A model generated the notes under the pieces. It was not told the origin of the DNA. It did not search any database and saw only the letters and a list, made by a program, of their open reading frames with translations. Both the position numbers and the translations under genes were made by a program. A DNA stretch of 64,000 nucleotides, from contig CM120645.1 of NCBI GenBank assembly GCA_051362555.1, positions 13,454,001-13,518,000 of the forward strand, read 5' to 3'. Positions 89 to 36,505 of the stretch are shown here, piece by piece. The stretch is from Lingula anatina. Its lineage: Eukaryota > Animalia > Brachiopoda. Each line of letters begins with the position of its first letter. Position 1 is the stretch's first letter.

Positions 89-455
89 ATGGCGGGGATT
101 CTTTTCTCGAAACGTCTATTAAAAGACGTATTTTCTGGGCGTTACACACAGAAGGCACTTTTCGTGAAAATGGTGAGTTATTGTACACAATACATGTAGC
201 CCCACAGAAATAGATAGGTGTATATATAGATGCAATGCACTCAGGCGTATATTCTATACACCATATTGGTAGGCAATTTCTCCCCAAAATGCTCCTTTTT
301 GTTTTTAACCAATAAAGCTCAGACACGTACTGTCATGTTGTTTTTAAAAGTGTTCACTAAGTGACGTAACCTCGATGGCCATGACCATTAACTTAGTGAC
401 ACGTGAAAGCACACTATGCACACTATAGGCACACACAAATAACCACTTTGATAAA

Positions 456-491
<36 letters not shown>

Positions 492-2454
492 TTTTATATC
501 TTTCACAGCAGGGGACCAACTTGTTCAATGTTGCATTTCATAACAGTGTTTGTTATGGCTACCATGCAACTTATTTAAAGCTGTGTGACATAATACTGTT
601 TACTATGGCTGCATGTTACCCTCATCGCCTGTTAGTATTCGTGACACTTGAAAAACCTTTGATGTTAACAATTCAACGACAAAAAGGGACAGTTTTTTTT
701 TACATAATATTATTAACTTGAAAAGAAATGGCTGTTTGCAAGTTGTGATATGGATTTCCTTTTATTGCATATGAAAAGGCCGACTTCTTTCATGCTCTCT
801 ATTCCTTTTATTCCAGTCTCCTCACGACTACCCGGTTTTGACAGGATCGGAGCACTGGAAAAGAAAAATCCGCACGTTTTTCAGAGCTCATGATATCGAC
901 CGCGACGGCTTTCTGACCAAAAAAGATTTTGAAATGACTGCTCATCGCGTTGCTGATTACATGAACCTTGATGGTAATAACCCCAACCCCTGAAATTAAG
1001 TTAAAGGGTTTGCTTCATGCCGTCAGAATGGCCTGAACGGAACATATTCTTCAGAAAACATGCCCAACTAACGATATCTTAATCCAAATACACAAATTAA
1101 AAGCTCATTTTGTAAATTTTTGGCTTTAAAAAACGTCCTATTTGCTCGGCCTGGGAGTTAATGAGCTACGTGGTCACGTGGTCCAATGACGACAATCGAG
1201 CCACTGGAGAACAGAGCGTGCTTAGCTGTCAAACTGAGCTGCATTGTCTACCTGTAAGATGACTTCTCTATCTGGCTTCTGATAAAAGTTTATACTCATT
1301 CAAATCTCTTACCCGAGGGGTCTAAATCCTCGTGAAGCTGTGTAAAACCATTTCCCGTCTAGTCATTTCTTTAACAAGCATTTCATTATGGTTATCCCAA
1401 GTTGTATAAAACACTGCATTTGAATGAGTTAAGGGAAATGTTGATTATTGCATATGAAGTCCATGTTATTTTATTAAACCGCTGACACTCCGTCTTGCAT
1501 ACTTTTATTAAACTGAGGTAAACAATGCCCGTTACCTTGACAAGTCCTATCTTAATCATCCATCTAACTGGAACTTCCTTTACCTCTTAATTAGAGGGTT
1601 AAATGGCATTCAATTTGTCTTGCTTGTATCGAACGCACTCTCTATCTAAGCTTTACTCCAGTTATCTCAGGTAAAAATCTACCTGTGCGTTAGTTACAAA
1701 GCGCAGCTCCCGTAGACCTGGGGGTACTAGATAAAATCTGAACACCAGGTTTATCGAGGAGCTAGAGAAAGAAAGGAAGAATTTTTCCTGCACAACTTCA
1801 TAGGAATTTTAACACGGACTTGATCCAGCTTAGACCTCCAAACTAACAGGGTGACATGGGCAATTTTCACAAACAAATCATAAAACTATATTTCAGTTAA
1901 CCGCCTTTAAAATAAATATACCGTTCTGGGTAAATTAAAATAGTTATTAAATCGCAAGAATATTTTTGACTTAAATGATGATTTTATTATTAATGGAAAT
2001 TAAGCTACTATATGAGGTACATTTGCTGTGATTACGGTACGCTGTCCTTCATGTTTTGCGTAAGTCTACATTTTGCTGTATGTGCTTGTAATCTTTTTAA
2101 ATATGTGCGTACAATTTTTGCAGGTCTGGTTACCCCCCTGTTATGTGATGAGAGTATTAATTTGGCAATTAGTTCCTTAGCTTATTTGAATAGAATTGCA
2201 GTGTAAAATTTTCAACAAGATGTTGGCGAAATAGCCCATTACTCTTTGTAGGTATTTCCCCCGTCAAAGTTTGTCTAAAATTATCTTTCAATCTTTACTC
2301 TTTCAAAGACAGTATAAAGTTACCTGACATATTTTCGTGTAAACTTAATGACAAGCCAAGTGTCTCCAGTTCATTCCGTACTCAATTTTACCCAAGCAAA
2401 TTTTTTTCTTGAGTAGATCTTTATAATAGCACGGTGTTATAAGCTTACAAATTT

Positions 2455-2488
<34 letters not shown>

Positions 2489-4342
2489 CGTACTGACGCA
2501 GAATTTGCGTTTCAAGTTATAAATAGATCAATCTTTTAAATTATTTAATATTTCAGATGAAATAATCTTCAGAAACAAATCCTCAAAGCATAAACGAATT
2601 AGGATAACGAACCATTTTATTATAGCAGTTCCCATTTTTTCTTTAATATAACGCTCTTTTTCCTGTTTTTCCTCAACACGTTTTCTTCCACGGAAGCTTC
2701 AAGATACCCTGAGAGCAATTTCTTTTATTAATGTTCGCGACCGTGTTTGAACTTAATTGTTTAAGTATTGATATTTAACGTCATTTACAAATACCAATAA
2801 AATAACCCCATGAAATAAATGAGATATATTGAAAAATATGAAAGCCCACCAAGACGAGTTTCATACCTGTTATTACCTGGCTTGGGAATTGCAGCGGTGC
2901 ATAATTAACAGGTTTGTTGTAAACGAGCTTTTGGTCAACTACAATGCATTTAAAATGCATCAGCAATCAGTAAGTTTGCCAACTGATGACAGTTAATCTG
3001 AAAGACTACCAGCTCTTGATATGATCTAAACCACCTGAGGCCAGGCCCGTAGCCAGGGGGGGTTCGGGGGGTTCGAAAGAACCACCCCTTTTGCTGGGAA
3101 AAGGTCCACTTTGGGTAAAATTTGTTCTAGGTACATGATGTTTTTATGGAAAAAGGTCCACTTTTTCAGAAAACGAACCCCCCTTTTGAAATTGCTGGCT
3201 ACGGGCCTGTGAGGTGACCATGATCTAGAGCATCGCAACTATTGTCACCGAAGTTAGTAAGTAAGTCACGGAAGACCGTCACAGACAAAGAAAGATTGTC
3301 AACGAGAGCTGCAATTTTGCTGAATCCCACGGCAACACACCGAGGCATAACGAAAATTCCTCAACTCCGTTCTACACAACTTTCCTTAACTTCTCCGTCT
3401 GTATGCAACATGCAGCTCAGAGTCTCATAGACCTTTATCGTGATTGTCGTCACAGTACCACGTGACCCAGATCTGTTGCTTCATTTTTGCATATTGAGGT
3501 GAGGTTTACTAAAACGCTTTTTTTTCTACTAATAGATTGTTTTTATAATTTTTAAATGGCGGGGATCGATTAAAACATACCTCTAGTGTATAGATTGAGT
3601 GCTGTATCTTCAAAATTCGAGAAATGGATTTTTACATGAACATTGTCCTTTAACGTCATGTTAAGAGTATACGAGTAGTTCAATTAAATATACAACTCGC
3701 TATTGTTCTGGGGGCAGTTTACCGCAAGAGATAATAAAGTATCAATATTATGACTTATGTTACATTATTTAACAGAAATTAACAGTGTGTTAGATTAACA
3801 GCTAAATTGTTTTCATGGCTTTGTGACATTTATTGAATGTAAATATGGGTTTAATTTAATTTATTGCAAATAAAATTGAAATATTCCCAGTATTTCTTAT
3901 ACTAAAATCTAGTTTTGCGTTTTTTATGTTTATTTCAGACAAAGCGGCACAGGATTTACTGAAAAGTCGCTTAAAAATCTGGGAAGGGATTGTTCAAGGC
4001 GGGGATCCGGATGACTTCAAAGTTTCTGAGGAAGTTTATTTTTCTCATCTCCTCGCTACCCTAAATACCGAATTTCGCGAAGCAGTTGTTGGATTCGTAA
4101 ACAATGACTTCGATTCAATGGATCTTGATGGCGACGGCTTCATCTCCCCGAAGGAACACAGAGCATTTTTCTACGGCTTTGGGATTCCGACAGAACATTC
4201 TGCGGCAGTCTTTGAGGCGTTTGATACCGACCGCGATGGCTTGATCAGCAGGGAGGAGTTCGTTCAAGGAGCGGTGGATTTCACTTTAAGTGAAGATGAA
4301 AACAGTCCTTACAATTGCTTTTTGGGGCCACTTGTGAAATAA
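89..4342 (+). CDS. SCP-like EF-hand protein copy 1 (214 aa); exons 89-172, 817-973, 3939-4342
   Basis: Exon 1 MAGILFSKRLLKDVFSGRYTQKALFVKM ends at GTGAGT. Exon 2 follows TTCCAG, reads SPHDYPVLTGSEHWKRKIRTFFRAHDIDRDGFLTKKDFEM... and ends in phase 1. Exon 3 has EF loops DLDGDGFISPKE and DTDRDGLISREE and ends FLGPLVK. The WKRK..FF, EF-I/III/IV and GPL C-terminus pattern matches Nereis-type SCP. Confidence 0.9.
1005..3649. mobile_element. Non-autonomous Kolobok-like DNA transposon in intron 2 of SCP copy 1
   Basis: TTAA on both flanks, AGG...CCT termini with imperfect TIR (AGGgtttgcTTCATG vs AGGacaatgTTCATG), and subterminal inverted GGTCACGTGG/CCACGTGACC. It accounts for this intron being about 2.6 kb longer than in the paralogs. 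Confidence 0.6.
3042..3209. mobile_element. Small MITE with 15-bp TIR CAGGCCCGTAGCCAG (hAT-like ends)
   Basis: Perfect TIR; no clean TSD seen. Confidence 0.65.
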
Positions 4343-5596
4343 ACTATTTATGGGCGCTTTAGCTCGTAAGATTTTATCATGGAGGCCACAACACCTATTA
4401 AACAAAAGGTTACAGACATACATATTAACACTGTATATAGTAGCTAGCGTCTAAATGTATACATATTTACTTACATCTTAATGTTTCTACAGACGGTTTC
4501 CCTTTCTTCCATCACGTTTCTTTGAGATCAGTGGTTAAAAATGGTATTTATTACACATTCATAATAATATCACGGGCGTTTCTTGCAAGTTGAAAATTGG
4601 TCTACCACATTATATTCAGAGGCCGAATTCTAAAAACGAAGCAATGATAGCACAGGTTCAATGACAGAAGTAATGACAGTAGTAGTAGTAATATAATTCT
4701 GTAATTTTATAGTGTTCTTTTTATTAATTTACTGTATACTTTCTTGAGGTTAGCACATGGCGACAACTATACGAGGTACTTACTGGATATATTTATCCAG
4801 ATCGGGGATTCTTCAAATAGCTCTGGATTTATTAGGCAGGCACTTTCGGTTAGATCATACTAGATGTATGTTAGACATTTCGTTTGGGCAGTTTTGTTGG
4901 AATCGGGATTTTTCATGGCACACTGTAAACAAAAAGGAAATCCCGCTTCTTATGTATGATTGTATATTTGTATTGTTAAGCATGCTTATGTATATTTGAA
5001 TTGTGAATGCTTTTCAATTGTATGTATGGCAAGGATAAATAAAAATGTATAGTATTGTGCCCACTATTATCTCGCCTTTATAATTCTGCGTAAATGTCAT
5101 AGGCATATTTTGACACAAGAGTCATGGAATAAACACTTTTGGCGTATTTACTGATCTGTCTCTAGATGTATTTATAAATTTCGCTTTCAGCACTTATAAA
5201 ATCTTCCCTTATTCAGGCCTTCATTAGAGCACTGGAGCTTGTGGTTTAATATGCTCTGTGGGAACCCAACCTAAAATGCTTTACGAAACTGATTTGTCAT
5301 CATTTTGAGCCCAGGGAAAAGGGGAAAGAGATGGAAAAAGTATTTCAAGCGCCGGTGCATCGTGACAGAGATCCCTTCATGATAGATAGTCCGCTTTCCT
5401 TTCATTTGTCAGGCCTCGCCCTAGATTTTGTCCCACTGAGGTCAGGCTAACTTTTACCATTATTGCAAATGGAGGGCGTACTTGCTGTTACACAGACCTT
5501 CAGTTACACGGGTCGTATGCAATTTCAGCTCCAAATGCCATGCTGACAGACAAACTCGATACGACACGAACCACTAATGGAACTCGTATATATTTT

Positions 5597-5828
5597 CAGG
5601 GGCGGATCCATGATTATTTGAAGGGGGTCCACGGATGCAAATCCGACCCCCCCTGGAGGGCCTCGAAAATTTTTGGTAATTTAGAGGGAGAACAGTGCCA
5701 TTTGGTACGGTTTAGAAATATGACTCAGCTAGTCCAAATTCTAATTTTAAGGTGGAGGGCACTGGTGTGATATTTTCAGAAATTTAGGGGTCTGGACACC
5801 CGTGACTCCCCCCCTAAATCCGCCACTG
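5597..5828. mobile_element. MITE with CAG(G/T)GGCGGAT TIR; related copy at 59591-59849
   Basis: CAGGGGCGGAT...ATCCGCCACTG termini; internal sequence shared with 59591-59849. Confidence 0.65.
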
Positions 5829-6260
5829 ATTTCGAGTGGCAGAGAGACGTCAACACCGGGAGCACAAATCACATATTAAAAACCAATTCACGCCTCGCCA
5901 TTATACATGTATATATTTTTTGGACCAAGTAAACTATAAATCGCCATGGTGCACGTAGATTTGGTATTCATTAAAGTCAAAGTTGAATTTGAAATTTATT
6001 CTTACAGGCACCATGGTTCTCCCATAAAAATGCATTTCAATTCACCCGCATTTCTTCTTTGTGGTTTATTTCTATTTCAAAGTCAGCAAACAGAATAGTT
6101 GACCTTGAACTTAGAGCATTCATTAGTGTGGCTGTACGCAAGCGTCTCGATTCCATAACACGCCCATACTCGACCCATGTAATATACTGTAATCTCTATG
6201 TGGTATCAATATTCGCAATACGCGATGCTTTCGAGTTACAGAGCCCAGATCACGGCATCA

Positions 6261-8220
6261 ATGGAGAGGATTATTCTTGCCAGTCGTTCCTTACAGGCCA
6301 CGATTTTTCGGCGTTTTACCCAAAAACCGATCATTTTGAAAAAGGTGAGTGTACATTAACTGACATGACTTTTTTCGCCTAAGGGCAGAAAACGGAGCTC
6401 AAATGAAATCGTGATAGCAACAATGACCGCATTCACATCGAGAAGAGCCGAGGCTAAGCAAGGCCGAGACCTAAATATGGCGGACGTGCATGAAAGGAAA
6501 ACACCCTAATCCTTTAATGGTCTCTCCGCCTCTCACACGCCTCCCCATGCGTCGTCCCTGCTGGGGTACAGTCATTAAATCTCGGCTCCATTCGTCCGGA
6601 AGCTACCTGAGAAAAATTAAGTGCGCATGCTCATTGGTCTTGGGTCAGCTGACATTATCTCTGCAGATAGCCGATTCATTGCTGCTCTACGGGCCAATTC
6701 ATGCCTTTTTTGTCTCTGTTTTGAAAGATAATAGAACAGAAGAGCTTTATTCCTTCGATCGCCTCCAGCTGCCATGCTTTCTTCACCTCGAGTTTAACTG
6801 ATGGTCTTGCGCACTTAATTTTTTCTCAGGTAGCTTCCAGGCCAATGGAAGCGAGATTTAATGACTGTACCCTCGCTTGGGGAGGCGTGTGAGAGGCGGA
6901 GAGACCATAAAAGGATTAGGCGGTTTTCGTTTCATGTACGTCCACCATATTTAGGTCTCGGCCTTGCTGAGCCTCGGCTCTTCTCGATGTAAATGCGGCC
7001 AATGATATGCACACACTTATGTACCGGGTATATCACAGCTACGACAATGTATTTATTTTACAGGTAATTATTTTCTTATCATAAAGAAAATGCACCAAAG
7101 CGTCAGCACAATCATGATATGTACCTGTAAAAATGTGACATATTCGACGTTTTTTGATAGAATTCAACAGAATGTTTCATCAAAACGAATGTCTTTTTCG
7201 TACATTATTTGTTAATCTATTTCATATACGAAGGTTTCAATCGGCGACTATACATAACGCAGAACATACTATACTAATACATATACTGTATTGGATGGCA
7301 TTCGTCACTGAAGAGTTCATTCATTCCAGTCTCCTCACGACTATCCGGTTGTGACAGGATCAGAGCTTTGGAAAAGCAAAGTCCATACATTCTTCAGAGC
7401 CCATGATTTAGACGGTGACGGATATCTGAGCCAAAATGACTTTGAGATGAGTGCTAATCGCATTGCAGATTACTTGAGCCTTGACGGTAACTGTTAAACT
7501 GCATTTATAACTAGGCGTTTGTGTTAAGTGATCAATTGCATTTTATTCTCATTGGCAGCCCAATGTGCAACCGTGTAAAACATAAAAATTATATTAGCCT
7601 TCACGTTATTTTACAATATCGCTCAGGTGACCGTGTATTATCTCACATCTGAGTGAAGATGGAACGTTAAGCGTACAAAATAAATATTTCAACCGATATT
7701 TGTGACATTGAATAACACGTTCACTACTGTTTATGTTTTATGTGTCAAATTTCAACCAAATCTAATATGCGAAGTTATTCTTATTTCGAATCGTTTTTCT
7801 TGTTTGTCTTCAGGTATAATGGCAAAAGAATTAAAAAAGAATCGTTTAAAACTCTGGGAAGCCATTGTTAAAAATGGGAAAAACGCTGCTGACTTCAAGG
7901 TGTCAGAAGAGGCTTATCTGTCAAGCTTCCTTGCTGCCGTCAATTCCAACTTCCGCGAATCTCTGGTTGACTCAATAAGTTTCGACTTCGATTGCATGGA
8001 TATTGACGGAGACGGTTTCATCTCCCCAAAGGAACACGAAGCAGTTTTCTTCGGCTGGGGAATCCCGATAAAGCACTCTTCGGATGTCTTTAAGGTGTTG
8101 GACGCCGACGGCGATGGCTTGATAAGCAAAGAGGAGTTCATCGAAGGAGCGGTAGATTTCACTTTTAGCGAAGATGAAAACAGTCCTTACAATTGCTTTT
8201 TCGGACCACTTGTGAAATAA
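6261..8220 (+). CDS. SCP-like EF-hand protein copy 2 (215 aa); exons 6261-6344, 7330-7486, 7814-8220
   Basis: Same intron phases as copy 1 (exons of 84/157/407 nt). Exon 1 MERIILASRSLQATIFRRFTQKPIILKK|GTGAGT. EF loops DLDGDGYLSQND, DIDGDGFISPKE, DADGDGLISKEE. Confidence 0.9.
6425..7000. mobile_element. Foldback MITE (about 200-bp TIRs, AAT 3-bp TSD) in intron 1 of SCP copy 2
   Basis: Long inverted arms GACCGCATT...AATGCGGCC, flanked by AAT. Confidence 0.85.
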
Positions 8221-8513
8221 AACAATCATTCGTGGTCCCTTTGATTCGTAAGGCAAGATTACGTAGACAACAGCGTAAATGTACCCTGCAAAACCAATGG
8301 TGCCCTTTCCACTGCCAGCATTTTGATAAAATGCAGGCCTACCCAACTACCAGACTCGGCACATAAGGATCCTGAATTAACCGGTATATCGGACCACACT
8401 ACCCGTTTTCAAGGTGTGTGTCAGATCGCATTTCGGAGTATCAGTCAGAACACCGACAGGATGAGCCCACGCTTGGATGTCACCTTGATTGGATAGTAAA
8501 CGGTTGTCGTAAA

Positions 8514-8776
8514 TCGCTATATGATTTTAAAACCGGGTGCATAAATTTGAAAACCACCTAGAACAACCTTAGACTGCCACATTAATGTAATACAATGAAA
8601 AAAAAAAAAAAAAAAACACTTTCAAAAGTGGTTAAAGCATTCAAACCGAATGTCGTAAAGTCTCCATATACCCCCATAGAGACAATAAAATAGAGTACTC
8701 TAAAGTTAGAGTACAGTCTAAGGTTGTTCTAGGTGGTTTTCAAATTTATGCACCCGGTTTTAAAATCATATAGCGA
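8514..8776. mobile_element. MITE-like element with about 62-bp perfect inverted repeats
   Basis: TCGCTATATGATTTTAAAACCGGGTGC...CTTAGACTG at 8514-8575 is inverted at about 8714-8776. Confidence 0.7.
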
Positions 8777-9831
8777 GTAGGCCTGAAATGTGGACTTTCC
8801 ATCATACGAAGGAAGGAATTCACCCACCTATATACACAACCTAGAAGTTATCTGCGCCCTTACACATAGGGCTAGTACCATCAAAAGGCAGGGCAAGTAT
8901 AGAAAAGCAGTGACAATTGTGACATTTGGGACAGTATGTAATTCTCTCACGTTCAATTAAGAATAACGGTTACAGAATCAACATCATGAATTATTTTACC
9001 CCTTAGGTACTGGTACACTGTGTGACACTGATTGGCCTACGAGATGATATTTCACGAATATTATACAGAAACTTTTTTTTTTATAAAATAATGCAATGAC
9101 AACGGTGCGTCAGGACAAAAAGTAATATGATCTGCACCTGAAGTAAAAAAGACTTGTCAATATACCCGCTAACACACGATGTAATTTGTTAAAGAGAAAT
9201 ACACTGTAAATAGATCAAAAACCGTAAAATCACTGACGGCAGACTGTGTAAGTCAAGTTTGGCGTACAAAGGCCTAAAGAGATCCGACCCACACAGACAT
9301 ATAAAGCGCAGACTGCATACCGGTAGCTTGGATATTTTGTTTTCAGACAAATGGAGACAGGTACCTCGTGCGTTTTGGGACTTATCAAATTGTTTCAGAC
9401 ACCGTGACAACGATATGGTGATCTGTTTTTGGCCTTTCTTTTGCCAGGGGAGAGGTGTAGTGAATTGATGATACGCATATTCATATTGTGTCATGTAATA
9501 TTCACTGTTGCAACAAAGAATCTTATATTCAATGCAATAAAATATTTTTCACCTTAAACTGAAACCGCCCCTCCCATAAAGATAAAGAGTAAGCCGCATT
9601 ATAGCATGCAAGAACGTCTTTGTGAATATACACAGACATGTTCATGTATACCTTACGTAGCTAGTGAACCCGAAAGTGTCAGTTACTGCATCGACTTTTT
9701 CATTTAAAGCCATAAAAAGAACGATTACCCAATTTTTTTATGCAGCTCTGAACACAAAACTATTTGCATTCTGGTATAACTAACTCGCTTTTCTTCCAAT
9801 ACTTAGTTACGGATCCCTAGACAACGGAAGA

Positions 9832-11364
9832 ATGTCGTTGTTACGTTTCTCCAAAAAACTTGTCCAACGTTCGTTTTGGCGTCATTTTTCGCAGCAGACG
9901 ATTTCCATACAGAAAGTGAGTATTCTTCACCAGACAACAAAAGCTTTATAGTGCATCTTGAAAAAGAAATAACGAGTACGAGTGCAGCAAGATTATTTAG
10001 TGAACGACAATTGCTCATCCGAAAAATGGGTTGTAAAGGGGCCAAAGCCCCTCTTTGGAAGTGCACGTCTTCCTTCCCCGAACAGCGTAGAAGTGTATAC
10101 TTGTAACGCACGCTTTACGTACGCTAAGCAACCAGTCTTAGATGCAGAAAATATTCATCTCACACAGCTGAGTCACTTCGTCAGCGGGCCCTTTGATTTT
10201 TATTCTGTGTTATATTTATTCTTTCTTAAATCTAGATAATCCGACCTGCCGACGGAATTTAGTTACAATTAGCAAAGGGTATAGCACTCTTTTCTTCTGT
10301 CTGTAATGGTAGACAACATGCAATGAGAGCCCTGATCAACAACTATTTTTTGCAAACTTATGTCACTCTTGCTTCACGGACAATAAAGGGTTACATCTTG
10401 TTCATGTATGGTCAGATTTAAACTGTTATATTTGGATTTGTGTTTTTTCTGTTTTTCTCAATAATTTGTGTAAAGAATGTGAGTTGATGTGAATCTTGTT
10501 CAAATTAACCTAAAGGTACATCACACGTATTCCAGACCCCTCACGACTATCCTATGGTGAAAGGTTCGGAAATATGGAAAAGAAAATTCAGGACCCTCTT
10601 CAGGTCCAATGATGTAGACGGCGACGGATACCTGACAAGGAGAGATTTTGAATTGAGCGCCCATCGCGTTACAGCTTACATGTGCCTTGACGGTAGCACA
10701 GCAAAACATTCTATTTTATATTAGTTTTGTTTATTAGAGAGCTGTTGTTTGTGCACACATGAGTCGATCAACTTAGTGTTAACTTGCTACAATATCAAAA
10801 TGATGAATTATGACCACAACAAAATGTTACGTGATTGTAGCTTAAAGTGACATCAAAACCTTTTCAATTACAATGAATACTTACTAAGGTAATTGGATGA
10901 GATGTGCATGTAATCACGCCATTTGTTGAATCTCGCTCTGTTGTTTTATTGTTTCAGAAAACGAAGCAAAAAAGGTATTGAAAAACCGTTTAGACATCTG
11001 GGAAGAAATGACGAGAGACATAGGCAAACCGGATGGCTCCAGAGTTTCAGAAGATGAGTATATTTCCAACTTCCTGCAAACCGTTAACACCAGTTACCGT
11101 GATTCGGCTGTAAGCTTTGCCTCCACTGACTTCGACTCCATAGATCTTGACGGAGACGGTTTCATCTCCCCAAAGGAGCACGAGGCGTTTTTCTACAGTT
11201 GGGGAATTCCCACAGAGCGCTCGGCAGATGTCTTTAAAACACTTGATACAAACGGCGATGGCTTGATAAGCAAAGAGGAGTTCATTCAAGGAGCGATGGA
11301 TTTCTCATTTACCGAAGATGAAAACAACCCCTACAATAATTTTCTTGGACCACTTGCAAATTAA
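9832..11364 (+). CDS. SCP-like EF-hand protein copy 3 (215 aa); exons 9832-9915, 10536-10692, 10958-11364
   Basis: Exon 1 MSLLRFSKKLVQRSFWRHFSQQTISIQK|GTGAGT. The 157-nt exon 2 has DVDGDGYLTRRD. Exon 3 has two EF loops and ends FLGPLAN. Confidence 0.9.
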
Positions 11365-23105: not shown

Positions 23106-26078
23106 TATTTTTTTTAAGGGGGAGGGAATGTAACAACCCCAGATTGTGTTAGTTGGGCTCAACCGGAAAAGGTCAGATTGTGTGGGTTGGGTTCAACCGG
23201 AAAAGAGAAAGAGAGTGGAGGCCGGGAAGGAGAAAGGAAGGGAGTCACCGTGGAAAGCTAATGTTTCCAGGAATTTATAGACCAAAACATATATAGCCTG
23301 GAAATAGAGCAACCCAGCATGGTGACCTTTATGAAATGATTACAAAGATAATGACATTTCTGTGATGGTGAGCTTTATGAAATGATAACAAAGACCATGA
23401 CATATCAGTGACATTTGTAACACCGGCGCCGGTGTCCACGTCAGTGACCGGTTTATCATTAATGATAACTTTCATGACGAATTATTCAACCTCCCTGGTA
23501 TATAAAGAGAATGATGTCGACATGCCGCCTCCTCCACCGTCGCTTTCATCGTTTCTAGTACCAGTGCCACCATGAAGATGTTTAAACAAGAAGGACAGCT
23601 AACTAGTGTTCCTGATAACTGTGTCAACGTGTCGCCTCCTCCATCATCGTCTTCACCGCTTTTAGTACCAATGCTTCCATGAAGACGTGTGAACGGGAAT
23701 TAAGTAGGATTGTTACATAGTTTATTTTGTCAAATGACTATGCATTTAGAGACATTGTTGATATATATTAATAAATTATATTTGAGAGTACATATAAAAC
23801 TTTATTTTGTCATAACAATAGAAATGATATTAAAACAATAAATTCTGTTTGTGATGGGATAGTATTTTAGCATTTGGTGCATTTCTTTTTTTTTCTTTTT
23901 TTTTGTGGATGGGGGGTGTCTACTCTTCAGGTGCATTTAACTAAATTGTTTCAATAATGTAAAAATTATGGATAATAAATCAGTCTTTTTTAGAGATATT
24001 TTGAAACAATAGATTTAAACCATGTATATAGGTTGGTGATAGTTGCATTTGAAAGTCAAACTACCAGTGGCTTTTAAAGATGGGTAACAGGACACCCAAC
24101 TCTTCCATAATGAATATACATCATCATTTATTAATGTGTCATGTGTATAGAGCACCCAGCCTTTCGGGCTTATAAGACACTTGTTGTATACATTTTTCCT
24201 GTCTTAAATCAAAAATCTTAACAACAAATTTTGGTGATTGCATCAATTTTTTTTCCATTATATGAATATATTATTGAGAATGAACAACTTGGTAATATTG
24301 AGACTAATTATAATCTCATTAAACAAAATGCAGCTACGGGAGGTGGGACAAACTGACAGTCTCACTTATTGGTGTACTCTCACTTTTGTTTATCCACATT
24401 ATCAAGTTTTCTTATCAAGTTGCCTCCCCAGGTAGAGGTGGGGTAAACAAATAATGTCACTCTTCCAGGTATTCTTTGAGACACTGTCACTTTTAACTGT
24501 TTCACCAAACCCTACTTGATCAAGCTTCCTGCCATTGTCAATCTCCAGGTAAAGGGGGGGATAAACAAATAATCTCTCTTGTCCAGGTATCCCTTTGGTT
24601 CAAGGGGGGGGGGGGGGGGGGTCTCCTAAAAAATTAAAAACTACATATGAAAGTCCAGAATAGTTAAATATATTTTAATGAGGTAAGCATGCCTGTTAAT
24701 GTTCACCTTTGATGGTATCAGCAGTGAGTAACCTAAGATACCGTGTAACTCTATTGATTGCAATCAAAATGTAATTATTCCAAGTAAACTTTTCCCAAAG
24801 ACAACTGCATAGTTACTTTAATGGTAGAGCCTGGAGGTAATCTTTTTAGTAAAAAGTAACATTTGAGTTTATTCATAGGGAAGAGGAGGCAAATCCCAAG
24901 GAGGCATCATGTGTTCTCCAAGAAATGCAAGGAACATTACAAATAACACATACACACACATATATACACAAAAAACAACAACAAAAAAGATAGCAAAGAA
25001 ACAAAGAAAAGGAATTATTATAGTAAAAGAAAATGATGCTGATTAACAACTAAGCAGAATAGTGAAATCAATCAGATGAAATAACCCATCATACGAAGGA
25101 AGGAATTCACCCGCCTACATATATACACGATCTAGAAGTTAAGGAAGTATAGAAAGAAATGGGAGTGTGCATGACATTTGGGACAATATGTACCTTTCCT
25201 TCTCTCACGATTCTCTCATTAATTAAGATTAATGATTGCAAAATTAACATAATTAATTATTTTACCCCCATTATGTTATGGCGCTGTTCTTGCTAATTAA
25301 AGATTGGCCCACGATATTTCACGAATATACAGAAGACATTTTTTTTATAAAAGAATGCAATGATTACAGCACGGAGTGTCGGGATAAAAAGCAATACAGT
25401 CAGTAAAACACATTAATATATCCGTGGTTATAAATGACGTAATTATATATAATTGGTTAGAAAGTAATAAATCACTGATGGCAGCCTTTGTGTGTCTTCA
25501 AGAGTTTGGCTTACATGTACAAAGGCCAAGGAAGATCCGACCGGTACAGAAAAGCGCAGATTAAAAAGCTTGAATATTTTGATATCTGACAAACTAAGAC
25601 AGGTACATTGTACGTTTTGGGACTTACCAAATCGTTTCAGACACCGTAACAATGACATGTTAATCTGTTTTGGCCTATAACATTTTTTTTTGTCCGAGGA
25701 GAAGTGCAGTGTATTGATGATACTCATATTTGAATTGTGTCACGTTATAGGCCTACTCACAGTTACATCAAAGAATCCTATATTCAATGCCAAAACAATA
25801 TTTTCTGACCTTAAACTGAAACCGACTCCCTCATAAAGAAAGAGTGAGCCTCATTATAGCATGCAAGCACGTGAATATTCAACGACATGTTCATGTATAC
25901 ATAACCTGTGACCCCAAAAGTGTCAGTTACTGCATCGACTCTTTCATTTAAAGCCATGCAGAACGAACGATTACCCCATATTTTTGATGCAGCTCTGCAT
26001 ACAAAACTATGTATATCCAGTAAACCTAACTCGCCTGTCTTCACAAATGTTAGTTCAGGATCCCTAGACAACGGAAGA

Positions 26079-28016
26079 ATGTCGTTGTTACGTTTTCCCA
26101 AACAACTAACCCAAGGTTCGTTTTTGCGCCATTTTTCGAAGCAGACGGTTTCCATTCAGAAGGTGAGCATACATGTATATACACCAGACAACGAAAGCTT
26201 TAAAGTGTATCTTGAAAAAGAAATAACGAATACGAATAAAGTAAGATTATTTAGTGAAGGACAATTGCTCATCCTGAAAACGGGGGCAGAAGGGGGCTGA
26301 AGCCTCTCCGCTTTTCTTTGGGAGTACACGTCTTCCTGCCAAAAACAGTGTAGCAAATCAAAACAAAAAGAAGCAATTTTCTATTTCTGTATTTCTATAT
26401 TTGTCGTTGCCGTTGATAAGGATATATGGTATACTTGGAACGTACGCTAAGAGACCATTCCCAGAGACTGTCGTACTAACTTCTGATCGATCTTGTTCCA
26501 TGTATGGTCAGGTTTACACTGTTAGATTTTGTTTTGTGTCGTTCTTTTTTTTTGTATTTCTCAATAAATGGCGTAAAGAATGTGAGTTGATATGAATCTT
26601 GTTCAAGATAACCTAAAGGTACATCACACGCATTTTAGAGCCCTCATGACTACCCTATGGTGAAAGGTTCGGAAATATGGAAAAGAAAATGCAGGACTTT
26701 CTTCAGGGCCAATGATGTAGACGGTGACGGATACCTGACAAGGAGAGATTATGAATTGAGCGCCCATCGCGTTACAGCTTACATGTGTCTTGACGGTAGC
26801 ACAGCAAAACATTCTATTTTATATAAGTTTTTGTTTAATATAGAGCGCATTCTCAACGAATTAAGCCAGGCTTTACAAAGCCGGTGACCTAAAAATGGTG
26901 GACGTACATGAAAGAAAAACCGCCTAATCTTTTAATAGTCTCTCCGCCTCCCCACACGTCGTCCCTGCGGGGTACAGTAATTAAATCGCGTCTCCGTTCG
27001 CCATGCGGAAGCTACCTGAGAAATATTAAGTGCGCATGCTCATCAGTTAAACTCGTGGTGAAGAAAGCATGGCGGCTGAAGGCGATCGAAGGAAAAAAAG
27101 CTCTTCAGTTCTATTATCTTTGAAAACAGAGACGAAAAAGGAATAATTTGGCCCGTAGAGCAGCAATGAATCGACTATCTACGGAGATAATATCACAAGA
27201 GATATTCGGAGCCGAGATTTAATTACTGTACCCCGCAGGGACGACGTGTGGGGAGGCGTGTGAGAGGCGGAGAGACTATTAAAAGATTAGGCGGTTTTTC
27301 TTTCATGTACGTCCGCCATTTTTAGGTCACCGGCTTTGTAAAGCCTGGCTTAATTCGTTGAGAATGCGCTCATAGAGCTGTTATTTGTGCTCACATTAGT
27401 CAATCGACTTAGTGTAAACTTGCTGCAATATCAAAATGATGAATTATGACCACAACAAAATGTTACATGATTGTAGCTTAAAGTGACAAAAAAGTTTACA
27501 TTATTGAATACTTACCAATTGTAACTATCAATGATATATATATAAGGTCATTGAATGTGATGTAATCACGTCATGAGTTGAATCAAGCTGTGTTGTTTTA
27601 TTGTTTCAGAAAACGAAGCAAAAAAGGTATTGAAAAACCGTTTAGACATCTGGGAAGGAGTGTCGAGAGGAATAGGCAAACCGGATGGCTCCAGAGTTTC
27701 AGAAGATGAGCATATTTCCAACTTCCTTCAAACCGTTAATACCAGTTACCGTGCTTCGGTTGTAAGCTTTGCCTCCAGAGACTTCGACACCATAGATCTT
27801 GACGGAGACGGTTTCATCTCCCCAAAGGAGCACGAGGCGTTTTTCTACAGTTGGGGAATTCCCACAGTGCACTCGGCAGATGCTTTTAAAACACTTGATA
27901 AAAACGGCGATGGCTTGATAAGCAAAGAGGAGTTCATTCGAGGAGCGTTGGATTACTCATTTACCGAAGATGAAAACAACCCCTACAATAATTTTTTTGG
28001 ACCAATTGCAAATTAA
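26079..28016 (+). CDS. SCP-like EF-hand protein copy 4 (215 aa); exons 26079-26162, 26639-26795, 27610-28016
   Basis: Close paralog of copy 3. Exon 1 MSLLRFPKQLTQGSFLRHFSKQTVSIQK|GTGAGC, with identical exon sizes and intact frames. Confidence 0.9.
26843..27371. mobile_element. Foldback MITE (same family as 6425-7000, ATA TSD) in intron 2 of SCP copy 4
   Basis: GAGCGCATTCTC...GAGAATGCGCTC arms; absent at the homologous site of copy 3 (about 10735). Confidence 0.88.
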
Positions 28017-31000
28017 TTGTTTTGATAAATTGAATTTATTCCAAAATGCAATGGATTGCAAATAACGCCCAAACATTTACCGTAAGCCTATCTACATATT
28101 ACAAGATGTGTGGGAAAACATTTCGACTCAATGCCCTCACTTGTATGTAGAAAAAAATTATATCTATGGCAAGAAGGATGCCCCACATCTCAACCAAAAT
28201 AGAACTCGACATTATAAGCAGTATGTTTAAAAGGATTAAACAGTGACTTCATTCATGTAATAACAGCACCCGTAACTGTACATACAGCATATGAATCTTA
28301 TGTTGACTTCAGTAAGGTATTTGGCAGTTTTTAGATAATTACGCATTTTCAAACTTCTAGAACAAAACAAATGGATGTATGTATTTATGCAAACATACGG
28401 TTGATGTATCAACAAGGTACAGTTCATGGTGCATGAAAACTAGCACAAGTCTAATTCATTCCGTTCTAAACGGGACTAATGAACTAATGAAATGTGCAGT
28501 TATTTTCTTATACTTAGCAAAATTTCACTGCCTGGCATTGTCACTGCAGATTGTCTGATGCTACTGTTATGAAGTGCTTCCAGCCTACGATTTAACAATA
28601 TCGAAAATATAGATAAAGGCCATCGATAGGTATCAATAAACCTGTCTAAATTGATTAGTTACTACATGTATCAGTAGAAAGAGGAAATTTTTACATAAAT
28701 AGAAAACCAAAAAAAAAAAAAAAAAAAAAAAACAATGTATGCCATGAATCGATAGGAGACCTGTGTATATCCGATGATCATGTGGAAAATGTCACAGCGG
28801 TATTTATAGGTATGATGTAACTCAAACAAACAGAAACCGCCGGTAACTCTAAATTTGTACATATAAAGGTACTGTGGTACTGAGTATGCAGATGGTGCAT
28901 TAGGGGCCTTTTTCCACAACGTGTCCAAATTCCATCAACCCTTGTCATAATTTGGCTTAAACCGTTACACAAAGAAACGAAAAAAAAAAAAAAAACCAAA
29001 AAAACAACCATTTATGAGAAATAAAGCACTGTGGTGAGCTGGAAGTATGCTAACTGCGTGCACTATGAAGTATGACTTGCATATGCAGAAAGAAACCGTG
29101 TTGCAACCGCTGCTATGAGTAAAAATAAGTGTTATACGCTATATTTGTTCTGCAAATGTCCTCTGTTTTAAAGATAAATAGCAACGTGTTAATTTGAACT
29201 CTGTGCTAGATCTGAAGAGTTAAATTGTATATTAATTTCAGCAACACGTTAATGCTGTAGATATTTATGATATAAACACCATATCATTATTTCAATATGA
29301 TAATTAATGTGAATTTTAGGCCCTGGTATAAGGTATGTATATAAAACTATCAGTAAGATAGAAAGATATAGAAAAAAGGTTATGTGTGTGGAAATCTGCT
29401 AACTCGTGCACCCAGATCAATTAAATTGTTTTGATAATGCATCGTATTGAATTTATACGTTGTAACACAGGCATAGAATAAATAATGTCAACCCATGGTT
29501 TGAGTTGTGCACTGATGATTTGTATGAAAATACGTATAGTTACCGGTTATTCTGACTTCAATAGATTTAAAAGTTGATATACTTAAACAAACATGTCCCT
29601 ACACCATTCATACATTGGTCTTGCAGAAACGAAAAAATACTTTGACACAAGGTTGCTTCAGTTGTTATCGGAATACATCAAATACCAAATACCGAGCCAG
29701 CCAGATAACGTTCTATACACAATACAGGTAGCTCTCCTGACATTGGGTCAGCCCGTCTGCAACGAAATAATGTTACCATATGATACAGAAGAGACGGTCT
29801 ATAGAAACTCTGTGAAGCGATATTATGTATCATCAGACGTGCATATAACATTACCTGTCAACACCTTTATTAATGGCAGCACGTCTTCTTTCATATACAG
29901 CCTATGTTGCCTCATGCCCAGCGAACCGATTCCTCGTGACCCCATTCACCTTGACACCAAAACTCTGCGGAAAGCCCTTGTATAAGCCAGGAAACGCTGC
30001 GCCGTTTCGGTCAATATGTAAAAATTTCCGTTAAAATAATTGTCGATTTTTATCTTTTTACCCAATTATTCAGTGAAGTCAGGAAACTGCTTTAAGCCTT
30101 AATTAAGAAGCCGTATCTTGTATTTATGAAGAACGAGAATTTGTATATGTCGGGGAATTTACAAGCATAGCTAGACTGAGAGAATAACGATCATGATAGA
30201 CAAATTACCAGCTGTCGAATCGCATGTGAAGAGCAATAGTTTTGTTTTAGAGGGGATGAATGTACTAGCTGTCAACTTAGGACCCAATGTAAAATTGCAG
30301 CATAATGAAAAACCATTTAACCATATCAAAAAGGTGAATGGAAATAAATGTGATCATTCGGACAAGTTTTTCAACAAAACAGAATCAAGATAAATAAAAC
30401 CGACGGTAAAAACAGACTGTAACCTCTGTGTGTCTGCAAATGTTATTAAATAATGGGTATATAGTAAGTTTTTTTTTACGCTTTTTTTATGTGCAGTTAT
30501 TTAAACGTGCAATTGAGCCGATGTCAAACAACACTTAGTTTGGGATAATGGCATAAAAATATCCAACCCCTACAGAAAAATGCAAACTGCATTTGTAATC
30601 TGACAAACGGAGACAGGCACTTTCATGACTGAACAAAGCGCCTATAATCCCGTTCATCTTTTTGGCCTATAACAATAATTTTGACGTGAATTGATGCTAC
30701 ACATATTCAGGTTGTATATATAATACCTTCGAACAAATTTTGAGTGGTGATGCAATGCTTTTCAACCCCGCTGAGAATCGTCACTATCACATCGCGTACA
30801 AGGCAAGAGCGGTGTCGCGTCTGATACTGTGAAATGCGTACTGATACACACCTTGAAAACGGGTAGTGTGGTCCAATTTACCGGTGAATTCAGGATCATT
30901 CGGTGCCGAGTCTGGTAGTTGGGTAGGCCTGACCCACCTCCAAGAGAAATACCTTGTAGGTATGCGCAGAATAACATGAAAACACGTCTTCATGCCATTT

Positions 31001-31343
31001 AAAACGACGTGTTATCAAAGACCTTACGTAACCAATGGTCGTGTTGGTTTTAGTAACTGCATCCAGTCTTTCATCTAGAATCATAAAAAGAAAGCATTAC
31101 CGGTCAGAAAGTTTTCATTTATGATATATCCTGAAATTTGATTTACCTGGTGACTGTTTCGTCTGTTCACTCTGACAGGCTTGGTCACAACTGAATTACC
31201 TGTTCAGGTGAAGATGAACAGGTAATTACCTCGGTCTTGATGATGACTTGTTAGTCCCTCTCGCCCCCCCCCCCCCCCCCCCCCGGGGTGGGTTTGAGAA
31301 TGTCGTCATACACAAGCACACAAGCTGTCCCATGTGTATGACG

Positions 31344-33285
31344 ACATTGGATTGTGCCTTTTACAGACTAGAGGACAATTACTTGTGACAACCACTTGGT
31401 CATTCACTTGGGTTTTTAGAGTCAGTCAATGGGCCCCAGGAGGTTTTTCTAGAGCTGCTGGTGATTTTATCAGCGATTAGACCAACATTTTCTCTAACGG
31501 GCTGCAATTACAGTTTACTCTGGTATTGTCTTCTTATCAAATATATCTCCAGAACCTCCCCCTGACAGCGCCTGAATGGGACTTACCTGGATTTCCCCCT
31601 ATCAGAAGACCGTTACAGGTGATTTAGCTCGCAGAAATAGATCGTATCTGTTACTTTAACGATAAGATCAGTGTTTCGATCAGTTCCTCAACCAAGGACT
31701 CTAATCATATCTGTCTGTCATCAGAACTAGCAGGGCCAAGCTGACAGTGACAGGCAGGTGCTCTAGGCTGATTTCTTAATTGACAAATGCAAGTGGTACA
31801 TGATCATTGCAATTCTGAAAATGGTGAAAGGATGTTGTGTGACTGGCAGTACAGCTAACAGTTATAAAAACCCACAGACAAAATTTTGTCAGCTGCCAAC
31901 ATTACCAGCACGACGACTTGAATGGCTAAGAGCAATCAATCGTGCTCATGTTAATCCAGATGGGAGTTTGGCATAAATAAGATGTGGAACCCTACCTCAG
32001 TATTTGTTTATGTGAGCTCAGCCCATATTGTCACAGGTACAGTAATAAATGTGTTCAATATTTTAATTTTAATATTTTAATTTTTTTTTATTTATTGTTT
32101 CCGTTAAACATAAGACTGCTATTGAATAATGTATATATTCTAATGGTTTTTAATTTAAAAATATGTATTTAAAATGACTTAGTCTTCCTACAGGGGCCAG
32201 CGTTAACGATCCAGGGCATCCAGTTTATTGTCCGTCAATTTTTCCACATAAGAAAACTACTCAGAAGGTGCAACGCTTTGAACGTGCAGCCAAAAGATGT
32301 TTTACAGAAGGTATACAATCAATGTTCCGTATTGCAAGTTTGGAGGACCTGTCCCGTATTGCAAGTTTGGAGAAGTTACTTACTTTGACACCACTCAGTA
32401 CATATTCTGTTGAAGGCAATGATGAGGCGTGTAAAATGATGACTGGTCTTTCATGGGGTGTATTCATGTGCCTTACTACTGCAATGAGAGCCTTGTTCCC
32501 ATCAGTGGAATAAGGTACCGGGTACTTTACCCTTGAAGGAGCAACTGTTTGTGACACGTACTTTTGAAATTAAGACACAATCTCACGTTTGAATTTTTAA
32601 CACATATTAAAGGGAATTTTCAAAACAACTATGATTGACATTTTTTGGAAATGGATTGACATGCTCTATTCCAAACTAAGCTTCACAATTGTACCGACAG
32701 ACAGAGAACATATATTTAGAACATTACCAGAAGTATTCAAAGATAAATTCCCCCGGTTAACGTCAATTGTGGATTGTTGTAAAATATTCATAGAGTCACT
32801 ACAAAATCTCTTAGCCCGTGCACAGACTTATAGCAGCTACAAAAAACACACAACGATTCATTTTTTTATTTCCTGTAACCCGAATGGCCACATCAAATTT
32901 TTTGTCTAATTTGGGGTGGTAGAGCATCTGATGTGATGATAGTGAGAGAGGTTTCCTCCTTCATGACGAGTTAGCAACACGATGCAGTGCCCAGCTCCTC
33001 ACACCAGCTTTCACAAAAGGCCATAGAAAAATGCCAGGCATTGACCTTCAGGGATCAAGTAAGGTGTCCTCAGTTAGGATCCATATTGAAAGACTGATAC
33101 ATGTTGTCCTAAAATAGGTACACTCTTTTGAAAGGCACCTTACTCCTGAGATGTGTCAAAAGTATTAAAGATGAAAGTATGGATGTTGCAGTATCAAGTG
33201 GTGATAAAATAGAGTGTGTGCAGCTTTAGTAAACCTGGGTCCATCCATAGTGTTTAAGTAGTCATGTAACTGTAGGAAAGTGTTA
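31344..33285 (+). mobile_element. Decayed THAP + DDE_Tnp_4 transposon, copy 2
   Basis: Colinear and highly similar to 19084-21440, with different internal deletions. Confidence 0.8.
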
Positions 33286-33451
33286 GTATGTCTTTTTTGG
33301 ACCTGAAAATAAATATATAAATAAAATAACGCGCATGCTCTTGTGGGCCTTAGTGGAATATATCTGGCGTATGTATATGTGCACCGTCAACTTTTTTTGA
33401 GGGATAAAGACACACAGGCACGTCAGCTCTGTACGGTTATTAGACTCCATA

Positions 33452-33688
33452 AGCCTAGGTCCCAACCGAACGTACGGGCTGCTACGTGTGGTCTACGGCT
33501 AAAAAATGGGGAAAACGTGGGAGTTCGTGCGTGAGGAGCACGTCCATCGTGCGACTTTTGGAGGACGCAAACAGCACGTAGAAACTTTTCGACATGAACA
33601 ACAGCCGCTACGTGCGATCTAGCTACGTCCTTGCAGGACGCAAGGAACCTAAAAACCGTGCGTCCAAAATGTAGTTGGGACCTAGACT
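33452..33688. mobile_element. MITE with about 15-bp TIR AG(C/T)CTAGGTCCCAAC and ATA TSD (Harbinger/Tourist-like)
   Basis: TIRs and 3-bp flanking duplication are seen directly. Confidence 0.65.
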
Positions 33689-35315
33689 ATAACGACAATG
33701 TTTCCCTGCAGTTTTCAAAAGTTAATGTACTGTGCAGTCCATTGACCTGTGACAACAGGTATCTGTTATTGCACGTGGTCTTTTATCAATGTCATGGAAA
33801 GAACATTTGACCTTAAATTAAGGGCATACTCTCATGCATAAGACTCGAAGAGTAATAGGGGCCTACATCTAAATTGCAAGACCCTAGTAGATGACGTGGC
33901 ATTCATGGTGGAAATGTTTCTTCACAGACTATTTTTAACACGTAGCGTGTCTGCTTAGTGGCTGATCTCTCCGGTATTAGGTATCTATCCCTCATTATAT
34001 TTTTTTCTTAAAAAGTCACTACAGTGGTTTGCCAAACTGGGCGAGTTCACGCGTGATAACAATAGGAAGGTCAAGAGAAGACCTTGTTGTTTTTGTGGAG
34101 AACTACACTGTACAATGTCGTGCTGCCAAAACAACTAGCTTAAATTAAACGTGTTTATTTACGTTTGCATTTATACATTTCCTGGGTGGGTACACTCCCA
34201 CTATAACACAAGAATGTACTTGATAATGTCAAACTACGTTTGTAATCGCGTATTGATACTAGTAGTTTGGTTAAAATAACTTAACATGTTGATAATTTTA
34301 AACGAACATTCCCAGAGACAATTCAGCGAACCAGCAATTAAAAATACTTCAGCACAAGGTTACTTCTGTGGTTTGTGCGTATAAACGAATACCTCAGATG
34401 CATGTCGTTTCACTATACATAATAACTCTCCTAACACTGACTCAGCCCGTATGCAGCGAAACAAGAGTTCCAGTTGATTCAACGGAGACCGTTTATAGAA
34501 ATCCTGTGTACCATCAGATGTATAACATTACCTGTCAACGTGATAAACTGTCCTCTTTATATTGCAACACATCTTTTTATGTGCAGTATAATTTACTTGA
34601 TGTATGCAAACCGACTCCTCAAGAATTGAGATTTTGGTGGCCATATCTTGTATTCATGACAATATAAGCCCTTGTATATGCTGGAAATTAATTTACTTTT
34701 TCGACTGAATATGTATCGAAAATAGTCAAAATACTAGCCATCGACTTGTATGTGAAGCGCAATAGTTCTTTTGCAAATGGAACTTAAGTACTAGTTAGTG
34801 TAAGGGAGCATTCCCATAAAACTATCGAACTAGCTGGATCGATCTAACTCTGAGGGGATTCTCGTTAAACTGCATTTCCTGTAAGCGGCTTTAATATCTG
34901 TCACGCCTACTCAGGCTGCGAGGGGGGTTATTAACAAACGCAGTCTAAACCCCAATATAAGGCCACAACTCCTAAATCTTACTTTGTTTTATCTTACTAA
35001 AAAAAAAAACCAAATGATGTGCATTTTTCTTTCCTAATCTTTTCTTATATTCATGAAGCACAGGGAGAAAACACGTTTGGTGTGTTAGGAAAATGTTTAT
35101 TTTTTCTTATTATAATCACACAAGATGCAATGGAAAATCTATGTAACCGCGTCATAAGCTGCTTTTATTGTATCAATGCGTCTAGTCACGTTCATTTCTG
35201 AATAAATGCAAGCCCAACTGTATACACACACATGCCTATATGACCACACAAAGTATATATAAAACCCAAATCTCATCTGAAGCGTTAATATATACATGCA
35301 TCCTGCTTCGTCATT

Positions 35316-36505
35316 TTAATCAAAAGGACCAAAGAAATCATTGTATCGGCTGTTTTCGTCTTCGCTGAACATGAAATCGGCGTGTGCTTCGATGAACTCC
35401 TCTCTGTTAATGAAGCCATCGCCGTCAGTGTCCATGACCTTGAAGACATCCTCCGAGTGTTCTGTCGGGATTCCCCATCCATAGAAAAAAGCCTTGTGCT
35501 CTTTTGGGGAGATGACACCGTCGCCATCAACATCAATGGAATCGAATTCACAATTAAATATACCCATAGCGGCTTCACGGAAAGTCGTGTTTAGCCCAGC
35601 AATCAATTTAGAGAGAAATTCTTCTTCCGACATCTTGAAATTATCTGGGTCGGGTGCACCACTTGCAAGTACTTCCCAAATGGCAACTCGTGTCTTTAAT
35701 AGTTCCTTTGCCTGTTTTTCTAAAACAACAAATTGTAATTACTTTAAACTCAGCGAGCAATGGAAATTAATACATAAATTTTTCGAAATAAAAATATTTT
35801 CTATCTGAAACTTTAAATATATATATGTTGGGATTGATTCTTTAATAACTTTTATTTTTATATTAATGTACAATTTTATAGCATTATTTTCTCAGAGGCA
35901 AATAATCTACCAAAGTTAACGGTAACAAATGACCGAATTTCGTATATGTTTTTTACCATTAAGATTCATATAGGAAGCCGCACGATGTGCGCTCATCTCA
36001 AAGTCTTTCTTGGTGTGATAACCGTCACCATCCAAATCTCTAACTCTAAAAAACTTTCGGAATTTTCTTTTCCAATGCTCCGACTCTGTCACCACTGGGT
36101 AGTCCTTGGGAGTCTGAAATACACCAATATGCCAGGATCTTATGAAATATTAAGCTTAGCTTTTGTGACCAGGGCAGATGTATGGAATCATCATCATTAA
36201 CTGCATAAATAATAAATAGTTTAACACTATTTGATATGATTCCCAAACTACAAAAGGCAAGTGATTTTCCAAAAAATACATTCATTTAATACAAGGCAAC
36301 GTGTTCACTTTTGGAGGTCGTTTTAGACGTCACGTCCAAACATTTCTCCGAGTATCCTGTAGTGTGGTTATCTTAACAAAAATTTAAAAACAGCTGTATT
36401 ATACCTGTACATATATGTGCTCACCTTTAAATTAATCGCTTTTTGCGTATAACATCGGTTCAGCACGCCGCGTAAAAAAGCACCAGAAAAGATTCGCCCA
36501 GCCAT
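35316..36505 (-). CDS. SCP-like EF-hand protein copy 5 (213 aa, inverted); exons 36505-36425, 36113-35957, 35719-35316
   Basis: Exon 1 MAGRIFSGAFLRGVLNRCYTQKAINLK|GTGAGC. Exon 2 TPKDYPVVTESEHWKRKFRKFFRVRDLDGDGYHTKKD... Exon 3 has loops DVDGDGVISPKE and DTDGDGFINREE. Confidence 0.9.

Follow-up and report, generated by a model that had tools for sequence, protein, structure and literature searches.

A 64,000-nucleotide stretch of the Lingula anatina genome (assembly GCA_051362555.1, contig CM120645.1, positions 13,454,001 to 13,518,000 of the forward strand), here called the window, carries a cluster of five intact genes (g1-g5) for EF-hand proteins of the sarcoplasmic calcium-binding protein (SCP) fold, and each of them opens its coding sequence with a short exon for a basic, acid-poor leader. 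In g1, RNA reads show this exon joined to the next one and at the start of the open reading frame (ORF); for g2-g5 we infer the same. The leader is consistent with a predicted, cleavable presequence for the mitochondrial matrix, and its features make import into mitochondria quite probable. The fuller prediction, that g1-g5 are imported, trimmed and act as soluble matrix Ca2+/Mg2+ buffers, is one that we favour by a little over even chances.

Five genes with a shared leader exon

All five genes have three coding exons and GT-AG introns, intron 1 lying in phase 0 and intron 2 in phase 1, and their spliced ORFs of 213-215 amino acids (aa) are free of stops. The phase-0 leader exon of 27-28 codons followed by GTGAG(T/C), which the initial annotation had described, was found in every gene, beginning at 89, 6261, 9832 and 26079 on the plus strand and at 36505 on the minus strand. 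The exons are as follows.

89-172, plus strand: g1 leader exon (first coding exon, 28 codons, last codon Met); stranded reads, spliced to 817 in X1-X3
817-973, plus strand: g1 exon 2 (EF1)
3939-4342, plus strand: g1 exon 3 (degenerate EF2, EF3, EF4 and stop); 16 X1 reads spliced across intron 2
6261-6344, plus strand: g2 leader exon; junction not among the splice joints shown
7330-7486, plus strand: g2 exon 2
7814-8220, plus strand: g2 exon 3; read depth low in X7
9832-9915, plus strand: g3 leader exon; zero read depth in its bins in all four runs
10536-10692, plus strand: g3 exon 2
10958-11364, plus strand: g3 exon 3; read depth 5-11 in X1 and X7
26079-26162, plus strand: g4 leader exon; start shared with RefSeq model P0007
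26639-26795, plus strand: g4 exon 2
27610-28016, plus strand: g4 exon 3
36425-36505, minus strand: g5 leader exon (27 codons)
35957-36113, minus strand: g5 exon 2
35316-35719, minus strand: g5 exon 3

The genes g3 and g4 derive from one segmental duplication, in which window positions 8920-16442 and 25172-30301 are 74-89% identical. An inverted-repeat element resembling a miniature inverted-repeat transposable element lies in intron 1 of g2 (6421-7004) and in intron 2 of g4 (26820-27373), and RNA reads derived from other parts of the genome contain this element in abundance.

The encoded domain has the SCP fold

The SCP/aequorin fold claimed for these proteins was borne out by a predicted structure and by the EF-hand loops. 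When the AlphaFold model of P0007, a RefSeq protein 97.7% identical to g4, was used for a fold search, the best match was the Nereis SCP 2scp (template modelling (TM) score 0.91 of the target, root-mean-square deviation 1.9, 28% identity), in keeping with the compact eight-helix fold of about 175-190 aa with four EF positions that marks the family. Canonical loops, D-x-[DN]-x-D-G with D or E at position 12, are present at EF1, EF3 and EF4 in all five proteins, position 12 being Asp in EF1 and Glu in EF3 and EF4; no canonical loop was found in the degenerate EF2 region of any of the five. Canonical EF1, EF3 and EF4 with a degenerate EF2 is the SCP pattern. Pfam returned EF-hands only for the window proteins, and the predicted mature protein is acidic (isoelectric point 4.6-5.3), with a mass of about 22 kDa. 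Among solved structures, the sequence search likewise ranked the Nereis SCP best (E 2.4e-11), followed by the Renilla coelenterazine-binding protein 2hps. Ranks 2-14 of the fold search were occupied by ligand-binding or sensor relatives (Renilla coelenterazine-binding protein, calexcitin, juvenile hormone (JH) diol kinase and okadaic-acid-binding protein).

The leader exon is spliced into g1 transcripts

RNA reads were mapped over positions 1-11800 of the window, which cover g1-g3 and in which repeats obscure the leader junctions of g2 and g3. The GT-AG junction 172/817 of g1 was crossed by 29 reads (5, 20 and 4 in runs X1-X3), all on one strand, and a second sequence variant of g1 gave 16 junction reads (7, 7 and 2 in the same runs) with the same 644-base skip and on the same strand. 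The read depth over 199-792 of intron 1 was zero. Loose read ends also revealed an untranslated exon upstream of the g1 leader exon, joined at either of two acceptors (near 7 and at 60). In the consensus, read by eye, this upstream exon holds an in-frame stop just 5' of the main acceptor at 60, and ATG 89 is therefore the first in-frame start of the g1 main isoform. Two short motifs of the upstream exon were searched for in the window and were absent from it. The statement of the initial annotation that each gene begins with the leader exon consequently applies to the first coding exon, whereas for g1 the reads place an untranslated exon before it, outside the window.

Several observations weigh against extending this picture to the whole cluster or to every transcript. 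The leader junction was seen for g1 only; the g3 leader had zero depth in four of four runs, against a depth of 5-11 over g3 exon 3 in two of them. A minor 5' isoform of g1 (4 reads, X2) enters near base 7 and has an in-frame ATG at 35, which would add 18 residues, and in-frame upstream ATGs also occur at g2 and g4. In X8, no reads fell on the g1 leader exon, and in the g2 leader region the read signal is confounded by repeats. The exon 1-exon 2 junction, for which an RNA-seq check had been suggested, was thus confirmed for g1 (29 reads, three runs), while the g3 leader exon was without reads.

The lack of reads on the g3 leader exon would also suit a reading in which the supposed leader exons are untranslated sequence or ATG...GT stretches due to chance, as would the fair frequency of acid-poor peptides in AT-rich DNA. 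The junction reads refute a chance ORF for g1. For the cluster as a whole, five homologous exons without stops and of one phase, the g1 junction in three runs, the matching RefSeq models and the excess of synonymous over nonsynonymous change given below all argue against this reading, which we find barely credible.

The leader has the features of a matrix presequence

As the initial annotation had described, the five leaders contain 0-1 acidic residues and lack a hydrophobic core; they have 5-7 basic residues, and their hydrophobic moment, taken over 11 residues, is 0.49-0.76. The motif proposed for them, R-x-[FY]-[ST] or R-Y-T, occurs in its strict form in four of the five, and g1 reads G-R-Y-T, with the Arg one place later. 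A home-made presequence rule (at most one acidic residue, net charge +4, 2 Arg, moment 0.45, no hydrophobic core) was then applied, the thresholds of which were chosen after the five peptides had been viewed; the five exons are, moreover, homologous and not independent. The rule was passed by 5/5 window leaders, 17/21 RefSeq leaders and 5/57 short SCP-like hits. The window contains 2537 ATG sites, 528 of which are open for 28 codons, and 34 of these 528 peptides pass the rule. When the exon bases were shuffled 20000 times, 301 products passed, 14 of them also with the strict motif. Rule and strict motif were combined in four of the five window leaders versus 4 of the 528 random open peptides.

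The same bias extends over the family. In 25 proteins, the 1096 leader residues comprise 11.2% Arg and 2.5% Asp+Glu, whereas the mature part has 5.2% and 18.5%, respectively. In 21 of the 25, whether the leader is short or long (24 to 86 aa), the DYP motif is preceded by an Arg at a distance of 14-15 residues. In exon 1, the proportion of nonsynonymous differences (pN) was below that of synonymous differences (pS) in six of six ungapped pairs among g1-g4, and exon 1 pN was 2-3 times exon 2 pN, as expected for a targeting peptide, both comparisons being based on small counts. The AlphaFold model of P0007 has a mean predicted local distance difference test (pLDDT) value of 85.6; only residues 1-22 fall below 50, a stretch ending slightly beyond the cut predicted to follow residue 19, and the model is confident from residue 23.

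According to PMC7723863, presequences are 20-60 aa long, high in Arg and low in acidic residues, with positive amphiphilicity and R-2/R-3/R-10 motifs. The leaders agree with this description in N-terminal position (g1), length, Arg-rich, acid-poor and amphipathic composition, and processing motif. Other addresses were considered and rejected. A secretory signal peptide would need the hydrophobic core that these leaders lack (best 9-residue Kyte-Doolittle mean, 0.0-1.14). The peroxisomal targeting signals (PTS) are the pattern R-[LVIQ]-x5-[HQ]-[LA] near the N-terminus for PTS2 and an SKL-type end for PTS1; neither was matched by any of the five leaders or proteins. A Pfam search with the leader exon alone gave no match.

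Some points tell against a presequence. In the window allele of g1, the Arg stands at -2 to Y|T instead of -3; 6% of random open peptides pass the post hoc composition rule; and the low pLDDT of the leader may merely reflect a thin alignment of 12 rows. In the second g1 read variant, linked counts suggest C-R-R-F-T for residues 16-20, which puts an Arg at -3.

The leader might instead stay uncleaved on a cytosolic protein, as a basic amphipathic tail for binding to membranes or to an acidic partner. Basic amphipathic tails have other uses, the last 8-10 residues of the leader are well conserved, and the confident pLDDT from residue 23 would agree with a retained segment. However, the conserved stretch follows the predicted cut, leaders of lengths from 24 to 86 aa share the avoidance of acidic residues and the place of the Arg, and a second clade, described below, displays the same pattern in a different sequence. 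We regard retention as rather improbable. The matrix-presequence reading of the initial annotation, by comparison, agrees with g1 splicing, leader composition, Arg position and a leader lying outside the confident fold, and it stands as a consistent prediction.

The cluster belongs to a larger Lingula family

A search with g1 exon 3 gave six hits, five of which, including all the close ones, are L. anatina RefSeq models named "sarcoplasmic calcium-binding protein". The g3 protein is 99.5% identical to RefSeq model P0267 over 187 aa, and the public models already contain the N-terminal extension. A profile search returned 30 hits, 25 of which are Lingula models on 8 scaffolds, the remaining 5 being weak. 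In a set of 26 Lingula models, counted without ten partial, fused or distant ones, a leader of 24-86 aa is present in 21, and 17 of these 21 pass the presequence rule. The five-gene cluster claimed at the outset is real, but its description understated the breadth of the family, which occupies at least 8 Lingula scaffolds and has a separate arthropod clade beside it. As a side observation, RefSeq models P0267, P0001 and P0283 are partly fused or truncated, P0267 being a fusion of g3 with the final part of a g2-like gene.

The family also provides evidence that runs counter to a uniform set of imported buffers. Five of the 26 models have no leader, and the approximately 25 paralogs, at 40-60% identity, are more diverse than a plain buffer needs, in a fold that also binds small molecules; several paralogs are named luciferin-binding-like in RefSeq.

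The Met encoded at 170-172, the last codon of the g1 leader exon, is kept in several paralogs and matches the start of leaderless models; this Met just before exon 2 may be an ancestral start or a second start. In an alternative reading, the proteins would be mainly or partly cytosolic SCPs begun at this Met, with the leader form minor or dual-targeted. The Met is found in g1, P0009, P0269, P0270, P0272, P0012, P0017 and P0271, three models start there, and the -3 base is A at the downstream Met and C at the first ATG of g1. Against such a start, g2-g5 have Lys at this place, with no nearby in-frame Met before EF1 except Met35 of g3/g4, no reads begin within g1 intron 1, and the leader composition is conserved. 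We therefore judge a mainly cytosolic product distinctly improbable, and translation from the leader ATG remains the preferred reading.

Arthropod SCPs carry similar leaders, probably of separate origin

A representative search also returned insect and crustacean SCP-like proteins of 240-305 aa with a long leader. When one arthropod member was used as the query, 94 hits were obtained, and nearly all the full-length ones had a long leader. Leaders were counted in 82 apparently full-length rows of the 96 given. By a looser rule and with no null run, 80/82 had at most two acidic residues and net +2 in the first 28 residues; a motif R-x-[YFMLH]-[SAG] or R-[YF]-S before the acidic spacer was seen in 72/82, again with no null run. 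A language-model search with P0005 placed an arthropod 296-aa SCP-like cluster as the top neighbour (score 0.93). The insect/crustacean clade consists of proteins P0116, P0175-P0265, P0048, P0070, P0084 and P0109.

Domain-only trees were built with 103 rows (quick) and with 42 rows (careful). The Lingula group joined the leaderless P0021 and P0041 (support 100/98), apart from the arthropod clade (100/99). A single origin for the Lingula and arthropod leaders was rejected in the 42-row tree, where the approximately unbiased test gave p-AU 2e-5 for a joint clade. Separate gains of the two leaders are likely on these sequence trees and not proven, because the 42 rows were picked with the first tree already in view, and truncated models may account for some of the leaderless rows.

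A third SCP-like family (P0083 and P0160-P0170; ENA/JGI/Logan records) has an Arg-rich, acid-free and presequence-like leader of about 42 aa, and the 182-aa cluster members of the P0083 family start at a downstream Met. In fly data, "CBP" is found in the crude mitochondrial pellet and is absent from the MitoMax-overlap file, where the 189-aa Scp1 is present; the inspected part of the PMC8050774 supplements has rows for Scp1/Scp2 only. These fly data are neutral with regard to a mitochondrial SCP, and CBP is tied to the insect clade by no more than its name.

A predicted route to the matrix and a predicted role

In the proposed mechanism, the mRNA includes the leader exon and its ORF begins there, as seen for g1 and presumed for g2-g5. 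The basic amphipathic N-terminus, to judge by its composition, would be read by TOM/TIM23. From the motif, MPP cleavage would fall two residues past the conserved Arg, and once Icp55 had taken off the bulky F/Y, the mature protein would start at T/S20. The matrix would be the destination, which is likely because no hydrophobic stop-transfer segment follows the leader. There, EF1, EF3 and EF4, whose loops are present in the sequence, would bind Ca2+/Mg2+ as in other SCPs, with EF2 degenerate. The tree suggests that the Lingula lineage probably gained the leader once, ahead of the former start Met, and that duplication then spread it.

The proposal of "matrix Ca2+ buffers or sensors" made from the sequence is consistent with a presequence on an SCP fold. 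Instead of buffering, an imported protein could be a Ca2+-switched binder of a small hydrophobic ligand or a sensor acting on a partner. Proteins of that type hold ranks 2-14 in the fold search, 2hps comes second by sequence, RefSeq names some paralogs luciferin-binding-like, and the family is large and divergent. Yet the buffer-type Nereis SCP is the best match by both sequence and fold, and no ligand or partner was suggested by any analysis. We consider ligand binding or sensing unlikely and, if the proteins are imported, a mainly buffering role fairly probable.

A wider synthesis is tentative, and we give it less than even weight: the SCP fold would have been recruited to the matrix at least twice in invertebrates, in a Lingula family of about 20 genes and in a conserved insect/crustacean gene, would represent the first dedicated high-affinity matrix Ca2+ protein buffer, and could govern mitochondrial calcium-phosphate handling in Lingula. 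A link to the phosphate shell of Lingula is speculation.

Other features of the window

Two relics of the gene family lie in the window.

17204-17353, plus strand: pseudogene relic, exon 2 with two stops; exon-3 fragment at 17640-17732
48617-48865, minus strand: g5-like exon-3 relic with a stop codon

A leader exon was looked for at the 17204-17353 relic and none was found. Two broken copies of a Harbinger-like transposon (DDE_Tnp_4 matches and a weak THAP match) are located at 19144-21440 and 31363-33285. Satellite arrays with units of 61/122 bp and 109 bp, built from short palindromic words, occupy 12485-13430 and 14657-15547. On the minus strand, 37656-51163 contains tandem units whose small exons would encode a hydrophobic membrane protein, probably a multi-pass one, five fragments of which were tried without a Pfam match, and 52638-55952 holds a 1104-codon open frame that combines leucine-rich repeats with a long stalk rich in Ser/Thr and a hydrophobic end, resembling a surface receptor.

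Comparison with known systems

The fold is known and the extension is already in RefSeq; the likely mitochondrial address seems to have gone unnoticed. No mitochondrial SCP was described in the literature searched, which comprised titles and the starts of abstracts, with most subscription papers outside coverage, so that the absence is a weak one; the long insect/crustacean SCPs were likewise not reported as mitochondrial there. In the Lingula genome paper (PMC4595640), "sarcoplasmic" and "mitochondri" are absent from the main text and "sarcoplasmic" from one supplement, and the main text of PMC13425148 contains neither word.

Mitochondrial EF-hand proteins include MICU1-3 and the Ca2+-regulated carriers, whose EF domains face the intermembrane space. 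EFHD1 is also reported to be a mitochondrial EF-hand protein, but of a different family. None of the known mitochondrial EF-hand families appeared among the sequence or fold matches of the window proteins.

The closest known protein is the SCP of Nereis diversicolor (2scp/1q80), the best match in sequence and fold, which shares the four EF positions and three canonical loops; in Nereis SCP, site II is lost. The solved Nereis chain has 174 aa, whereas the window proteins are extended at the N-terminus by about 40 residues, the leader among them. Classical cytosolic SCPs are described as parvalbumin-like muscle buffers, and oyster Pf-SCP occurs throughout mantle cells, according to PMC12542302. 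Unlike these, the window proteins carry a putative targeting leader exon (five of five; spliced in g1), and they are therefore an SCP variant and not a classical SCP. The Renilla coelenterazine-binding protein (2hps/2hq8), squid calexcitin (2ccm), Bombyx JH diol kinase (7pjd, 6kth) and aequorin/obelin have the same fold (TM about 0.6-0.87 of the target, 16-29% identity). None of these ligand, kinase and photoprotein relatives is described with a presequence in the sources consulted, and the likeness is one of fold only.

The long insect/crustacean SCPs (about 240-305 aa; Harmonia, Tribolium, Apis, Periplaneta, Notodromas, Procambarus) resemble the window proteins in that their SCP domain is preceded by a basic leader, poor in acidic residues and with an Arg motif. 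They differ in a longer leader followed by an acidic Ser/Asp/Glu spacer and in being present as about one cluster per named species, and they open the prediction to tests in beetle, moth or bee models. A 2023 review (PMC11550887) states that known matrix buffers fail to explain some measurements and that mitochondrial Ca2+ buffers are still to be identified; among invertebrates, a soluble EF-hand protein with three sites and a matrix address would offer a concrete candidate for such a buffer. If this is true, a known fold has been relocalised by the gain of one exon, apparently more than once.

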